This document shows, piece by piece, positions 8,996 to 54,437 of a stretch of DNA of 64,000 nucleotides (position 1 is its first letter; every line of letters begins with the position of its first letter). Location of the stretch: NCBI GenBank assembly GCA_945877575.1, contig CAMDUE010000009.1:7173-71172 (forward strand), given 5' to 3'. This stretch comes from Chitinophaga pinensis (GTDB taxonomy: Bacteria; Bacteroidota; Bacteroidia; NS11-12g; UBA955). The position numbers and the translations under genes were made by a program. The notes below the pieces were generated by a model. That model was not told the DNA's origin. It searched no databases and worked only from the letters and a program-made list of their open reading frames with translations.

Positions 8996-9043
8996 CGGGT
9001 TTTGGGTTACGGGGATCGGGTTTCGGGTGACAGGGATCGGGGG
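8996..9043. repeat. G-rich spacer with at least 7 G3-5 tracts (GGG TTTT GGG TTAC GGGG ATC GGG TTTC GGG TGACA GGG ATC GGGGG) between the convergent crtB and radA stops; G-quadruplex motif and an imperfect direct repeat AC(R)GGGATCGGG
   Basis: Read directly from the sequence. It exactly fills the gap between the two stop codons. Confidence 0.7.
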
Positions 9044-15449: not shown

Positions 15450-15641
15450 ATGAAAAAATTCACTTTCGCTTTGGCAGCATGTGCAGCTTTCGCTTTCGCT
15501 GCTTGTGGAAACAACAACACTGAAGAGACTCCAGCAGTAGATTCTCCTGCAGTTGAAGAAACTGTAGCACCTGACACTACTACTGACACAGCTACTACTG
15601 ACACAGCTGTAGCTCCTGCAACTGAAGAGGCTGCTAAGTAA
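15450..15641 (+). CDS. Small acidic Thr/Ala/Pro-rich lipoprotein (63 aa)
   Basis: Signal peptide with a lipobox-like AFAAC|G. The mature part is low-complexity (TEETPAVDSPAVEETVAPDTTTDTATTDTAVAPATEEAAK). A strong intrinsic terminator follows directly. Confidence 0.45.
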   Translation: MKKFTFALAACAAFAFAACGNNNTEETPAVDSPAVEETVAPDTTTDTATTDTAVAPATEEAAK

Positions 15642-15663
15642 TCCACAAAATTTAGAAAAAAGG

Positions 15664-15693
15664 AAAGGCACTTGTAAAAGTGCCTTTTTTTTT
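15664..15693 (+). terminator. Rho-independent terminator (AGGCACT-tgtaaa-AGTGCCT followed by T9)
   Basis: A perfect 7-bp stem plus a U-run about 25 nt after the stop of the 63-aa ORF. Confidence 0.8.
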
Positions 15694-15707
15694 ATTTCTT
15701 TGTACCA

Positions 15708-40667: not shown

Positions 40668-40833
40668 TTGGTACCGAGTACCGGGTAGCTGGTAATTGGT
40701 AGAGGGTAGAGGGTAGAGGGTAGAGGGTAGAGGGTAGAGGGTAGAGGGTTGCAGGAACTGCAGACCACGGACTATGGACCAACTACCATGTACCATGTAC
40801 TATCTACCAAAGTCTACCAAAGTCTACCAAAGT
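40668..40833. repeat. Composite tandem-repeat array between the convergent dnaN and yggS stops: GGTAC-rich leader, (GGTAGAG)x7 at 40698-40746, degenerate RGACYAY-type heptamers (…CAGACCACGGACTATGGACC…), then (CTACCAAAGT)x3 at 40804-40833
   Basis: Counted directly in the sequence. The array abuts both stop codons. The GGG-TAGA-GGG periodicity is a G-quadruplex motif. Confidence 0.9.
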
Positions 40834-41499
40834 CTAAACGAAAACCGCCGTGCCCACTCTTACGAACGTAGATCCGTGTTCGATGGCTATGTGGTAATCA
40901 CTGCTCATACCAATTGATAGTTCACAGAAAGCGGGTGAGTCATTGAAGATGTTTTCCTTGGCGTCAATGAATAATTTCTGTATCAATGAGAATTCATTGG
41001 AGATTTGAACGGTGTCATCGGTGAGTGAAGCCATGCCCATCAGTCCGCAGATTTGAATGTTCAACAATGAGGCTTTTTCGGCGTTGAATTCAGACCAAAA
41101 TTGGGGCAAATGTGCGGGAGGAATTCCAAATTTGCTATCTTCCTGGGCGACATGAAGTTGAATTAATACGTTGATGATTCTATTGTTTGCCGCAGCTTGT
41201 TTGTTGATTTCTTTAAGTAGTTTTATTGAATCTACGGAGTGAATCATTTCAATGAACGGCGCAATATATTTGACTTTGTTGGTTTGAAGGTGGCCTATTA
41301 AATGCCATTCAATGTCAGTAGGAAGTTGCTCTCTGCGCTCAAGGAGTGCTTGGACTCTGTTCTCTGCGAAAATTCTTTGTCCGGAGTTGTAGGCTTCCTG
41401 GATTTCTTGGATTTCACGGTACTTGGAGACGACAATGAGCTGTGTGCTTTTAGGCAATTGTTTCTTGATTTGATCGATGTTTTCTGCTATGCGACTCAT
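40834..41499 (-). CDS. yggS: YggS-family pyridoxal-phosphate homeostasis protein
   Basis: LIVVSKYREIQ…FAENRVQ…WHLIGHLQTNK signature. Confidence 0.85.
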   Translation of the reverse strand: MSRIAENIDQIKKQLPKSTQLIVVSKYREIQEIQEAYNSGQRIFAENRVQALLERREQLPTDIEWHLIGHLQTNKVKYIAPFIEMIHSVDSIKLLKEINKQAAANNRIINVLIQLHVAQEDSKFGIPPAHLPQFWSEFNAEKASLLNIQICGLMGMASLTDDTVQISNEFSLIQKLFIDAKENIFNDSPAFCELSIGMSSDYHIAIEHGSTFVRVGTAVFV

Positions 41500-47925: not shown

Positions 47926-48013
47926 GGTACTTGGTCTTTGGTACTAGGTACAGGGTACTTGGCGGTAGCCGGTACCCTCTACCCGCTACCCGGTACCAAG
48001 TACCTCTATCTAA
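47926..48013. repeat. Heptamer-periodic repeat (locus B): (GGTACTT/GGTCTTT/GGTACTA/GGTACAG/GGTACTT) followed by GCCGGTA CCCTCTA CCCGCTA CCCGGTA…, the reverse complement of the GGTAG(A/C)G family
   Basis: Seen in the sequence. It lies between the ftcD stop and the 5' end of the T9SS gene and overlaps the ftcD stop codon. Confidence 0.8.
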
Positions 48014-51125: not shown

Positions 51126-52226
51126 ATGTCTTTACAATGCGGAATTGTTGGTTTACCCAACGTAGGGAAATCTACTCTTTTCAATGCAGTTTCTAGCGCC
51201 AAAGCGCAATCTGCAAACTTTCCTTTTTGTACCATCGAGCCCAACGTAGGTACCATCACCGTTCCTGATGTCCGCATCAACATGTTATCATCGTTGGTGA
51301 ATCCACAAAATATAGTTCCTACAACCATTGAGATTGTGGATATTGCTGGATTGGTAAAAGGCGCATCAAAAGGCGATGGCTTGGGTAATCAGTTTTTGGG
51401 TAATATCAGAAATACGCATGCCATTCTGCACGTACTTCGTTGTTTTGACGATGATAACATCATTCACGTAGACGGAAGTGTAGATCCCATTAGAGACAAA
51501 GAGATCATTGATACGGAATTGCAATTGAAAGATTTAGAAACTCTAGAAAATAGAATTTCAAAAATTGCCAAGCAAGCCAGAACTGGTGGCGATAAAGAAG
51601 CGGCGCGCTTATTGGAAGTTTGCGAAGCTTTCCGCGACCATCTTTTAAAAGGACAAAATGCTCGAACTCTAGAAATGGATGCCGAGAAACGTGTTGCAAT
51701 AAAAGAACTAAATTTATTGACCGACAAGCCAGTGATGTACGTTTGTAACGTTGATCCTAGCAGTGCGAAGTCAGGAAATGCATACGTTGAAAGAGTGCGC
51801 GATGCAGTTAAAAATGAGCAAGCCGAAATCTTGATCATTTCTGCAGCCATTGAAGCGGAAATCGCAGAACTTGAGAGTTTCGATGACCGACAAATGTTCC
51901 TACAAGAATTGGGTCTAGACCGCAGTGGGGTTGAAAACCTCATTCACGGAGCGTACAAATTATTGAATTATATCACCTATTTCACGGTGGGCGTAAAAGA
52001 AGTAAGAGCTTGGACCATCACCAAGGGTATGAAAGCCCCCCAAGCTGCTGGTGTCATCCATACAGACTTCGAAAAAGGTTTCATCAGAGCCGAAGTCATT
52101 GCCTATGACGACTATGTTCATTACAAGACAGAATCAGCGGCTCGTGACTCCGGTAAACTTCGTGTTGAAGGAAAAGAATACGTAGTCAGCGACGGAGACT
52201 GCATGCATTTTAGATTTAATGTTTAG
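51126..52226 (+). CDS. ychF: Ribosome-binding ATPase YchF
   Basis: GIVGLPNVGKSTLFNA G1 motif and a C-terminal TGS domain (…GKEYVVSDGDCMHFRFN). Confidence 0.9.
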   Translation: MSLQCGIVGLPNVGKSTLFNAVSSAKAQSANFPFCTIEPNVGTITVPDVRINMLSSLVNPQNIVPTTIEIVDIAGLVKGASKGDGLGNQFLGNIRNTHAILHVLRCFDDDNIIHVDGSVDPIRDKEIIDTELQLKDLETLENRISKIAKQARTGGDKEAARLLEVCEAFRDHLLKGQNARTLEMDAEKRVAIKELNLLTDKPVMYVCNVDPSSAKSGNAYVERVRDAVKNEQAEILIISAAIEAEIAELESFDDRQMFLQELGLDRSGVENLIHGAYKLLNYITYFTVGVKEVRAWTITKGMKAPQAAGVIHTDFEKGFIRAEVIAYDDYVHYKTESAARDSGKLRVEGKEYVVSDGDCMHFRFNV

Positions 52227-52433
52227 TACCAGGTGCCTGGTACTTGGAAGCTGGTAGGGGGTAGGGGGTAGGGGGTAGGGGGTGACCACAGACTACGGAC
52301 TATGGACTATGGACCACGGACCACGGACCACGGACCACGGACTATGGACTATGGACCACAGACCACAGACCACAGACCACAGACCACAGACTACAGACCA
52401 CGGACTACAGACCATGGACCACAGACCAATATC
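52227..52433. repeat. Heptamer tandem array (locus C) filling the gap between the convergent ychF and E1 stops: GGTAC leader, (GGTAGGG)x4 at 52253-52280, then about 21 consecutive heptamers A[CT][AG]GAC[CT] (GGACCAC / GGACTAT / AGACCAC variants)
   Basis: Counted directly. The strict 7-bp register holds over about 180 bp. GGGGG-TA-GGGGG x4 is a canonical G4 motif. Confidence 0.9.
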
Positions 52434-54437
52434 CTAATACCCTAACAATTCCTCCAAACTAGATTCTAATCGGTTCCATGGGAGGAATTGGTCTTCTAAG
52501 GATTTGGATAGTGGAATGGGAGTGTCTAAACTTCCGAGGCGCTTTACAGGGGCGTCTAGATGTTGGAAAGCGTTTTCAGTTATGTATGCCGATATGTCCG
52601 AAGCTATGCTTCCGGTGAGAGTGTCTTCTGTGAGAACCAAGGCCTTATTGCAGCGTTTAACTTGTTCAATAACCGTGTCTTTGTCCCAAGGAAGGAGCGT
52701 CCGCAAGTCTATGACTGTGACGCTGAGATTTTTCCTCTTGATTAGATCTAGGCTTTGGAGAACGCCCCAGCCGTAAGTGATGATGCAACAATCACTGCCA
52801 AAGTCGTGCACGGTTGCTTGGCCCTCGGGGAGGGTGTAATAGGCCGTTGGAACCTCGGCTTCTGTGTTCCGGTAGAGAAATTTATGTTCGAAAAATAGCA
52901 CCGGATTTGGGTCTTCGATGGCGCGCAATAAAAGCCCTTTTGCATCAAAAGGATTTGATGGGTAGTAAATTTTAAGTCCCGGCACATGGTAAAACCAGGC
53001 TTCTGTACTTTGGCTGTGAAACGGGCCGGCTTGAACGCCAGCGCCAGTGGGCATTCGAACCACTACCGATGCGGGTTGCTTCCAGCGGTAATGACTTTTT
53101 GCCATATTGTTGACTATCTGGTTGAAACCGCAAGTCACGAAATCGGCAAATTGCATCTCAACCACTGATTTTGTCCCTTTTATTGAAAGTCCATATGCCG
53201 CACCTAAAATGCTACTTTCGGTGATGGGAGTATTCCGAACGCGGTGTCTACCGTGTCTTTCACTCAGTCCTTCGGTCGCTTTAAATGCCCCGCCGTATTC
53301 AGCAATATCTTGGCCCATAATCACCAAATCTGGGTGTTTTTCAAGAGCCAGGTCAAGGGCGTTTTTTACCGCATCAATTAGTCTCAGGGTTGTTTTTTCG
53401 GGGGATGACCCTTCGGGGGATACGCCTTCGGCGGATATTGATTCTGATTCTGATGCAAACGGTGCGTATAAATCAGTGAGCTCTCGGTCTAAATCTGGAA
53501 TGATTTCAGGTTCATTGAATACTTTTTCAATGGCTAAGTTTAGGATGTCGAGTCGTTCTTTTCTGATTTTTTCAATTCCTTCGTGATCTAAAAGTCCTTC
53601 GCCAAAAAGAAAATCTTCATAATTCTTAATGGGGTCTTTTTCAGCCCACATTTCAATGAGTTCTTTGGGGACATATTTGATGCCAGAGGCTTCTTCGTGT
53701 CCGCGCATGCGGAAGGTCATGGCCTCGAGAATGACAGGGCGAGGCCTAATTCTGATGCTTTCTGCGAGATTTTTGACGGTGTTATAGACTTCTAAAATGT
53801 TGTTTCCATCCATTTTTACGGCTTCCATTCCGTAGCCAATGCCTTTGTCAATGAATTGCTTGCATCGAAATTGTTCATTGCTTGGTGTAGACAATCCATA
53901 TCCGTTGTTTTCGATGAGGAAAATTACGGGTAGATCCCACACCGCAGCTACGTTTAACGCTTCGTGGAAATCACCTTCACTAGCACCGCCATCGCCGCTA
54001 AATACTACAGTTACTGTATTTTTTTGATTGAGTTGATCTGCTAAGGCAATGCCATTGGCCACTCCTAACATGGCTCCTAGATGACTGATCATTCCAACAA
54101 TGTGGAATTCATTGGTTCCGAAGTGAAAACTTCTATCTCTGCCTTGGGTAAACCCAGATGCTTTCCCTTGCCATTGAGCAAAGAGGCGTTCATCGGGGAT
54201 GTTACGGGATGTGAATACGCCCAAATTTCGGTGCAAGGGTAATATGTATTCATCTGAATTTAATGCCAATGTGGTTCCCACAGAAATGGCTTCTTGTCCT
54301 ATGCCAGAAAACCATTTACCTATTTTACCCTGTCTGAGTAGTATGAGCATCCGTTCTTCAATGATGCGGGGCGTCAATAGAGATTTATAAAGGTCTATTA
54401 GTTGTTGATCACTGAGGTTTCTGCGATTGAATTGCAT
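52434..54437 (-). CDS. TPP-dependent 2-oxoacid dehydrogenase E1 component, fused alpha and beta subunits
   Basis: The N-terminal half is E1-alpha (TPP-binding GDGG…EG…NN: VVFSGDGGASEGDFHEALNVAAVWDLPVIFLIENNGYG). The C-terminal half is E1-beta/transketolase-like, joined by a Ser/Glu-rich linker. Confidence 0.8.
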   Translation of the reverse strand: MQFNRRNLSDQQLIDLYKSLLTPRIIEERMLILLRQGKIGKWFSGIGQEAISVGTTLALNSDEYILPLHRNLGVFTSRNIPDERLFAQWQGKASGFTQGRDRSFHFGTNEFHIVGMISHLGAMLGVANGIALADQLNQKNTVTVVFSGDGGASEGDFHEALNVAAVWDLPVIFLIENNGYGLSTPSNEQFRCKQFIDKGIGYGMEAVKMDGNNILEVYNTVKNLAESIRIRPRPVILEAMTFRMRGHEEASGIKYVPKELIEMWAEKDPIKNYEDFLFGEGLLDHEGIEKIRKERLDILNLAIEKVFNEPEIIPDLDRELTDLYAPFASESESISAEGVSPEGSSPEKTTLRLIDAVKNALDLALEKHPDLVIMGQDIAEYGGAFKATEGLSERHGRHRVRNTPITESSILGAAYGLSIKGTKSVVEMQFADFVTCGFNQIVNNMAKSHYRWKQPASVVVRMPTGAGVQAGPFHSQSTEAWFYHVPGLKIYYPSNPFDAKGLLLRAIEDPNPVLFFEHKFLYRNTEAEVPTAYYTLPEGQATVHDFGSDCCIITYGWGVLQSLDLIKRKNLSVTVIDLRTLLPWDKDTVIEQVKRCNKALVLTEDTLTGSIASDISAYITENAFQHLDAPVKRLGSLDTPIPLSKSLEDQFLPWNRLESSLEELLGY

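Follow-up and report, generated by a model that had tools for sequence, protein, structure and literature searches.

A compound heptanucleotide repeat, probably generated by slippage, as the spacer between the convergent ychF and E1 genes of an uncultured member of the Bacteroidota

In a stretch of 64,000 nucleotides from a genome listed as Chitinophaga pinensis (GTDB lineage Bacteroidota; Bacteroidia; NS11-12g; UBA955; assembly GCA_945877575.1, contig CAMDUE010000009.1, positions 7,173 to 71,172), which is called the window in the following, the convergent genes ychF and E1, the latter encoding the E1 component of a 2-oxoacid dehydrogenase, are separated by a tandem array of 7-bp units. This array is genuine and hypermutable, it changes its length and its unit make-up in exact 7-bp steps, and its rate of change exceeds that of the genes on either side by orders of magnitude. 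It is probably a compound heptanucleotide simple-sequence repeat (SSR) that has been generated by slippage, and thus a microsatellite similar to the long simple-sequence repeats (LSSRs) of other prokaryotes and to the STRR repeats of cyanobacteria.

The variability of the array becomes apparent when the gap is compared among seven assemblies, namely the window and six contigs from ENA, NCBI, JGI and Logan assemblies that encode an identical YchF protein. Their ychF DNA is 99.8-100% identical to that of the window, and their gaps measure 95 bp (three assemblies), 116 bp (one), 207 bp (the window) or 221 bp (two), with length differences (among them 14, 91, 105 and 112 bp) that are in every case multiples of 7. 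The 221-bp allele of L001 and L004 differs from that of the window only by two additional GGACCAC units, with the ychF DNA being 100% identical, and this agrees with the proposal of an earlier sequence-only reading that the runs of identical units reflect slippage. In the 116-bp allele (L003), the unit types follow each other in the same order at lower copy numbers, and some units are replaced, GGTAGGG for instance by GGTAGCG. The 95-bp allele (L002, L005, L006) has a G-rich block unlike that of the window (GTGCCGG GTTTCGG GTTTCGG GTGCCGG GTAGCGG), which is followed by the same GGTGACC junction and then by a short block of RGACYAY units. The junction is kept in all four allele types. As the 95-bp allele is identical across three independent datasets and the 221-bp allele across two, an artefact of assembly is excluded, and as the length steps include non-multiples of three, 14 bp being one of them, the array is non-coding, which is what the same reading had held of a 7-bp unit.

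Within the window, the gap comprises the 207 bp from 52227 to 52433 between the two stop codons. The stop codon of ychF (TAG, 52224-52226) is itself in the register of the array, and that of E1 on the minus strand (52434-52436) is 6 nt away from the last heptamer. Parsing into heptamers gives 29 units in a single unbroken register (52225-52427), in the order of four degenerate lead units, (GGTAGGG)4, the GGTGACC junction, and 20 AYRGACY units. The G block and some 21 heptamers behind it had been recognized from the sequence alone, and this description holds, with the addition that the register also covers the 26 bp in front of the G block. To the left of the junction the GGT-type units lie on the plus strand, to its right they lie on the minus strand. 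The block of 20 consists of 19 perfect RGACYAY units (52290-52422) with one imperfect unit at each end, its members include GGACCAC, GGACTAT, AGACCAC, AGACTAC and others, and it reads (GGUCYRU)n on the sense strand of E1. Tandem Repeats Finder (TRF) reports (GGTAGGG)x4.4 with 100% matches at 52253-52283, a period of 7 with 20.7 copies, 85% matches and no indels at 52284-52428, and an additional higher-order period of 42 bp, with scores of 62, 143 and 188 for the array. Strong self-identity was found only at lag 7 and its multiple 14 when lags 2-15 were tested over the whole 64 kb. The doublet RGACYAYRGACYAY has 19 matches in the window and an expectation of 0.02 from shuffles, which excludes an origin by chance.

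The array is not alone. Altogether four period-7 arrays occur in the window, all of them beyond stop codons, and as no further array follows in the approximately 7 kb past the right edge of the window, the total is four in about 71 kb. The sister array between dnaN and a yggS-like gene is built of (GGTANNN)n including (GGTAGAG)7, the hairpin TGCAG-GAA-CTGCA, GACCACGGACTATGGACC, (NNNTACC)n and (TCTACCAAAG)3, in this order. In assemblies with an identical DnaN (L087-L096), the shortest version of this gap measures 152 bp and the longest more than 290 bp, and some strains have inserted (GGGTNYC)n blocks. The array breaks assemblies: three contigs end within it and two scaffolds have N-runs there. 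Its last part, (TCTACCAAAG)x3.4 at 40803-40836, is the sole clear period other than 7 (10 bp) that is attached to a heptamer array; it adjoins the stop codon of the yggS-like gene and has 2-3 copies depending on the strain. The gap between the crtB-like and the radA-like gene ranges from 47 to 159 bp between strains with an identical CrtB-like protein (L097-L104), and the array and its alleles contain only G3N4 units, GGGGATC, GGGTTAC, GGGTTTC and GGGTGAC. The third sister array (47926-48005) is a long imperfect palindrome and the only array of the window in a co-directional gap.

It had been assumed from the sequence that the array fills the gap between ychF and E1, but the relation is more likely the reverse. 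Among 11 convergent gene pairs that the window contains, eight have overlapping stop codons or at most 7 bp between the stops, in each of the other three the spacer is a heptamer array, and in the closest species representative found, whose YchF is 86% identical, ychF overlaps with its convergent neighbour by 4 nt and there is no array. Taken together, this means that the array makes the gap rather than filling it, and the natural and preferable reading is that no earlier spacer was filled, but that expansion of the repeat brought this one about. The genome as a whole is very compact, and most convergent pairs leave no room for terminators.

Table 1. Position of the ychF/E1 array and its parts, of the flanking genes, and of the sister arrays in the window
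Feature	Position	Strand	Remarks
ychF, 366 aa	51126-52226	+	left flank; open reading frame (ORF) list, Pfam MMR_HSR1 and YchF-GTPase_C on the identical called gene
E1 component of 2-oxoacid dehydrogenase, fused, 667 aa	52434-54437	-	right flank; Pfam E1_dh, Transket_pyr and Transketolase_C
Four degenerate lead heptamers AGTACCA GGTGCCT GGTACTT GGAAGCT	52225-52252	+	same register as the rest; lag-7 region continuous from 52226 to 52429
Palindrome GTACCAGG-TG-CCTGGTAC	52227-52244	+	8-bp RNA hairpin in either sense, no U-tract; folding
(GGTAGGG)4, four G5 tracts with TA loops	52253-52283	+	G-quadruplex (G4) motif on the ychF sense strand; TRF, G4 regular expression, G4Hunter; G block as oligonucleotide sequence: GGTAGGGGGTAGGGGGTAGGGGGTAGGGGG
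Junction unit GGTGACC (GGTNACC palindrome)	52281-52287	.	switch of heptamer polarity; heptamer parse
20 AYRGACY units (RGACYAY family)	52288-52427	+	homogeneous sub-runs; TRF, heptamer parse
Sister array, whole convergent gap dnaN/yggS-like	40668-40833	.	TRF
Sister array, whole convergent gap crtB-like/radA-like	8996-9043	+	G3N4 heptamers (CGGGTTT, CGGGGAT, CGGGTGA, others)
Sister array immediately past the stop codon (48006) of a 599-aa gene on the minus strand	47926-48005	.	(GGTACNN)n, then (NNGTACC)n

With regard to the genes in the neighbourhood, E1 contains a 15-bp tandem repeat of its own (53397-53437), an in-frame copy-number polymorphism of five residues in a linker-like region (GVSPEGSSPE or GVSPE), by which the length of the protein is either 667 or 662 aa, depending on the strain. 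Por_Secre_tail domains of the type IX secretion system (T9SS) type and CHU_C domains are encoded nearby.

A period of 7 is favoured also elsewhere. When a uniform array detector was applied to 1.39 Mb of comparison DNA around ychF, taken from the best 80 YchF loci of other genomes that all belong to the Bacteroidota, 11 arrays of period 7 were found, compared with 3, 1, 2 and 0 of the periods 5, 6, 8 and 9. When JGI metagenomes were scanned for runs of four RGACYAY units, at least 120 stretches were obtained on contigs with a GC content of 0.25-0.75, and among the 120 matches listed there were 97 further period-7 arrays without a run of three RGACYAY units, as opposed to at most 18 arrays for each of the remaining periods between 5 and 12. 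There is nothing special about the unit as such: in a collection of viral contigs, a scan of the same design returned 28 stretches of RGACYAYx4 and 19, 17 and 47 stretches of three scrambled heptamers, and RGACYAY was therefore rejected as a special conserved motif. The wide distribution of this unit thus reflects a general propensity of bacteria for heptamer arrays, and it is the period that is favoured in the window, in other Bacteroidota and in metagenome contigs alike.

Several of these other arrays deserve mention. Directly after the ychF stop codon, TTAGACY units are found in a metagenome-assembled genome (MAG) of Sodaliphilus (L054, 11054-11114), CATTGAC units in a Bacteroides MAG (L074, 11100-11144) and CAAGANN units in a Mucilaginibacter MAG (L025, 4174-4209), and two Pedobacter species have (GGTGAAA)9 and (GAGATGT)13 just upstream of the ychF start codon (L042, 9894-10002; L069, 9781-9890). 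The Bacteroides locus contains five heptamer arrays in 19 kb, and in one metagenome contig of 6662 bp (L107, GC content 0.61) a quarter of the sequence, about 1.7 kb, is made up of 31 period-7 regions. The composite architecture of the window recurs on two contigs from other metagenomes, L143 (664-935 and 12247-12308) and L147 (204-439). On L143, a TAG stop codon is followed by TACCAGG-type units, some 25 GGTCTGT/AGTCGNT units and (CCCRCTA)n, and the assembly from which this contig stems, JACCDM, also contains the crtB-like gene of this lineage; on L147, a G3N4 block is followed by a RGACYAY block.

It is most likely that the spacer results from replication slippage in 7-nt steps at a place where growth of the array does no harm, the structural side effects on the two 3' untranslated regions (UTRs) being specific for the allele. 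Features by which LSSRs are recognized were found, namely head-to-tail units within the size range of this class (5-11 nt) in a series longer than chance would give, copy-number changes by whole units between close strains, and a mainly non-coding location. The driving process would be slipped-strand mispairing during replication, together with an occasional unequal exchange of several units at once to which the 42-bp higher-order period points, and mutated units would be amplified again and thereby give rise to the homogeneous sub-runs. In a compact genome whose convergent genes abut or overlap, such an array may persist only where it does no harm, which is beyond stop codons, and there it would become the entire spacer. 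Both mRNAs probably contain the array as their 3' tail, and with this allele a G4 motif would follow 27 nt past the stop codon of ychF, and a long hairpin rich in G.U pairs would come immediately behind that of E1. Any effect on the formation of 3' ends would be specific for the allele.

This allele dependence can be seen with each of the predicted structures. (GGTAGGG)4 has the form of a canonical G4 motif (G4Hunter maximum 3.04), its folding being a prediction; it begins 27 nt past the ychF stop on the sense strand, and its four G5 tracts are spaced one heptamer apart, as is the case in G4-forming heptamer repeats. The 95-bp allele retains a G3N4 motif that is made of different units, and the 116-bp allele of L003 has only three tracts of three or more G, so that a strict G4 motif is absent. 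The G4 motif that had been noticed from the sequence alone is thus confirmed for the window allele at the level of prediction, but it is not conserved in every allele. The statement that the gap holds no terminator hairpin needs a correction of another kind, as the ychF stop is directly followed by an 8-bp hairpin (52227-52244), although this is no canonical terminator: UUGGAAGC follows the stem and there is no U-tract. The hairpin is present in L003 and absent in L002, L005 and L006, and apart from it the ychF-sense RNA is unstructured (z = +0.6). In the sense of E1, RNA of the 207-bp allele is predicted to form a long hairpin rich in G.U pairs (-85.7 kcal/mol, z about -5.3 to -5.7) in which GGUCUGU pairs with GUGGUCC, with six pairs per heptamer, three of them G.U, and a U-U mismatch. 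The 221-bp allele has a similar value (z = -5.5), whereas both short alleles fold unremarkably (95 bp, z = +1.0; 116 bp, z = -0.8), and the hairpin was hence rejected as a conserved element. Among the sister arrays, that of the dnaN gap is a true imperfect palindrome, for which the majority of alleles have z-scores between -3 and -5.7 on either strand, the one at 47926-48005 reaches -5.7 and -7.5 on its two strands, and the crtB gap has G4 potential only, with the motif on the plus strand in five of the six N-free alleles that were folded (L099, which would be the seventh, contains an N-run). The arrays thus usually have some structure, but in the ychF/E1 gap there is none that all alleles have in common. 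Since the G4 motif and the hairpin come and go between alleles, they are taken as by-products and not as a conserved device.

A Rho-independent terminator in the ychF/E1 gap was considered and rejected, as there is no U-tract after the hairpin, a scan by consensus returned no terminator-like site in this gap, and L002 lacks the hairpin. Elsewhere in the window there is a textbook terminator, GGCACTT-GTAA-AAGTGCC-TTTTTTTTT at 15660-15695, whose hairpin and T-run indicate that the organism does use canonical intrinsic terminators. It follows a small lipoprotein-like ORF (from 15450) with an internal 15-bp repeat (15577-15608). Rfam gave no match at the gathering threshold in the whole window, and ARAGORN detected no tRNA or tmRNA in it.

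There are regularities, however, that weigh against blind slippage. In every array of the window, and read on either strand, the G/T-rich GGT-type units are at the 5' side and the ACC-type units at the 3' side, and the switch takes place at a small palindrome, GGTGACC between ychF and E1 and GGTTGCAGGAACTGCAGACC behind dnaN. Every allele of the dnaN gap that extends far enough retains the central hairpin. Among the metagenome matches listed, all 12 inverted array pairs within 120 bp have the order (RTRGTCY)n..(RGACYAY)n, and the mirror order, which would be equally self-symmetric, is not found among them. Also, no strain was seen that has lost any of the three convergent-gap arrays, the G4 motif is kept in three of the four allele types of the ychF gap despite wholly changed units, and GGGTTTC, GGGTGCC and GGGTAGC recur at different loci, which could be due to ectopic exchange or to a shared constraint. 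The inverted pairs consist of (GTAGTCC-like)n, a short spacer and (GGACTAC-like)n, and they lie on L115, L119, L130, L131, L146, L155, L162, L174, L197, L198 and L199, contigs with a GC content of 0.55-0.70. They do not represent copies of a single element, since spacers and flanks vary from pair to pair. With its two-fold symmetry, the arrangement has a polarity that the direction of replication cannot explain, whereas transcription from both sides could do so. The association between array orientation and the GC skew of the contigs is weak (40 versus 29), and a link to the replication strand was accordingly rejected. In the window, the GC skew is positive on the plus strand in every 4-kb bin, and the window is thus probably located inside one replichore. 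The polarity rule is unexplained, and it is the only hint of a function.

The alternative to which these observations lend themselves best is that the array is a selected bidirectional 3'-end element, in which GU-rich folds would cause RNA polymerase to pause or to terminate, or would keep 3' exonucleases out, and would thereby insulate the convergent genes from each other; the G4 would serve ychF, the G.U hairpin E1, and an inverted-repeat hairpin the genes at the sister arrays, with the sequence drifting and the structure being kept. It is in line with this that the GT-rich 5' polarity holds in all arrays of the window and in all 12 inverted pairs among the metagenome matches listed, that the arrays are retained in every strain, that strong folds are predicted (z = -5.3 here, -3 to -5.7 in the dnaN gap, -5.7 and -7.5 at the 48006 gap), and that sense-strand G4 motifs lie less than 50 nt from a stop codon, as in the heptamers of Xanthomonas and Nostoc (PMC4692102). 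Where an array abuts a stop codon, the GT-rich strand tends to be the mRNA sense strand (11 versus 4), but this trend is not significant (p = 0.12). Moreover, eight of 11 convergent pairs manage without any spacer and the relative L007 without an array at ychF, neither short allele has an unusual fold and the 116-bp allele of L003 lacks a strict G4 in addition, the gap contains no U-tract and no terminator-like match, and with a canonical terminator at 15660-15695 there is no need for an exotic one. Such a selected element is therefore unlikely, though it comes next after slippage. A bolder version, according to which composite heptamer arrays of fixed polarity are a distinct and widespread class of structure-only 3'-end elements for convergent genes, whose sequence is continuously remade by slippage while selection keeps fold and polarity, has to be regarded as rather improbable; if it were true, the 12:0 polarity of the inverted pairs in unrelated metagenome contigs would be its signature.

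It is highly improbable that the heptamers serve as iterated sites for a directional reader of DNA or RNA, be it for a KOPS-like loading of FtsK on the leading strand, as a Chi-like signal or for a cold-shock- or S1-type RNA-binding protein. The KOPS consensus of E. coli is GGGNAGGG, and the three overlapping GGGTAGGG octamers of the (GGTAGGG)4 block fit it three times, on the strand of positive GC skew. The existence of a polarity rule would suit a reader as well, and so would the reviewed evidence that CspB binds heptamer repeats with one protein per unit (PMC4679880). However, the octamer is missing from L002 and present as a single copy in L003, and outside the array the window has 5 copies, about 3.8 being expected, all on the plus strand, a bias that the GC skew alone would give. 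Units that vary by locus and strain, and scrambled heptamers that form arrays just as often, also argue against a sequence-specific reader.

An origin of the array as a collapsed or chimeric low-complexity region, which the sequence-only reading had named as a way in which its finding could fail, is very improbable. It is true that contigs end in the dnaN-gap array or carry N-runs there, and as the arrays disturb assembly, the exact copy number of any single allele deserves caution. Yet the same architecture is present in seven assemblies, with the 95-bp allele identical in three of them and the 221-bp allele in two, the homogeneous sub-runs do not exceed 42 bp and are thus well under the read or k-mer length, and the flanks join both genes correctly. 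That the array encodes a small repetitive peptide, such as the 51-aa ORF at 52282-52437, or functions as a phase-variation switch can practically be dismissed, for although ORFs of 40-51 aa span it and a 7-nt unit yields a 7-residue repeat per 21 nt, length differences of 14 bp and other non-multiples of 3 shift the frame, a position between two stop codons and outside any gene or promoter leaves nothing to be switched in the flanking genes, and Rfam has no match.

Heptamer arrays have precedents, and the view that the array belongs to no described family had to be given up, as far as the reports cited here go: heptanucleotide repeats are a described class, also in some Bacteroidetes, and G4-forming heptamers near stop codons are on record as well (PMC4692102). 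According to the account of Mrazek, Guo & Shah 2007 that is relayed in PMC4679880 and PMC4692102, heptanucleotides are the most abundant long SSRs in most prokaryote genomes, with polymerase slippage as the proposed cause, and a few Bacteroidetes are also reported to have heptamer arrays (PMC4679880). With the LSSRs, as they are portrayed in that account, the array shares the tandem 7-nt units beyond chance expectation, the intergenic location, the copy number that varies between close strains, the phylogenetically scattered occurrence and the preference for period 7; what differs from them is the uncultured host from the Bacteroidota, the units, the presence of several unit families in one register, and the occupation of whole convergent gaps.

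The G4-forming heptamers GGGAATC and GGGGA(C/T)T of Xanthomonas and Nostoc (Rehm et al. 2015, PMC4692102) resemble the G block in that a G-tract and a short loop add up to 7 nt, in the four units of the window allele, in a length and sequence that vary between close relatives, and in the occurrence of inverted pairs. With its start 27 nt behind the stop codon of ychF, on the sense strand, the G block also takes the position that was reported for GGGNATC heptamers (PMC4692102), and GGGGATC, which occurs in the sister array at 8996-9043 and its alleles, fits this type. The unit GGTAGGG, in contrast, departs from the consensus, the G block is fused to a much longer block without G4 character, and the G4 is a prediction here. 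A preference for four G units as in that study (PMC4692102) is not seen across the alleles. TAACTGA direct repeats are known from Beggiatoaceae, cyanobacteria and five Bacteroidetes (MacGregor 2015, PMC4679880). They are likewise intergenic heptamer direct repeats, they form long mixed arrays in Gramella forsetii and Aequorivita sublithincola, and close relatives can lack the array at the same gap; they differ in that they are mostly found just upstream of start codons, whereas the arrays described here are located beyond stops and contain no TAACTGA unit.

Rho-independent terminators share with the array the location directly after stop codons and the potential for hairpins; what sets the array apart is that it has no U-tract and that its structure depends on the allele, and most convergent pairs of the window offer no space for any terminator. 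SSRs of phase-variable genes are found within ORFs, between promoter elements or in the 5' UTR, and not between convergent stop codons. Another related group is formed by the STRR repeats of cyanobacteria, which reportedly go back to work of Mazel and colleagues in 1990. These are dispersed intergenic tandem heptamers with several unit types per genome, and they are so variable that they can be employed for strain fingerprinting, a use that is mentioned in PMC5088731. Unit sequences and phylum are different: the units are not those of STRR1-3, which belong to heterocystous cyanobacteria, and the host is a member of the Bacteroidota, as indicated by the 80 best YchF loci, which are all from this phylum, and by the Por_Secre_tail and CHU_C domains in the neighbourhood. 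A literature search for the exact units gave a single match, which was unrelated. The class has been known since the cyanobacterial STRRs, its function being unproven.

For a single uncultured population of the Bacteroidota, public metagenomes provide alleles from nature at three loci, with ychF/E1 gaps of 95-221 bp, dnaN gaps of 152 to more than 290 bp and crtB gaps of 47-159 bp between flanks that hardly differ otherwise. This series could be used for analyzing the dynamics of heptamer slippage, for tests of selection on G4 motifs and hairpins, and as a source of strain-typing markers. As the arrays break short-read assemblies, they are also relevant to the MAGs of this lineage. If the polarity rule holds in complete genomes, it would be the first sign that such arrays are more than tolerated products of slippage.

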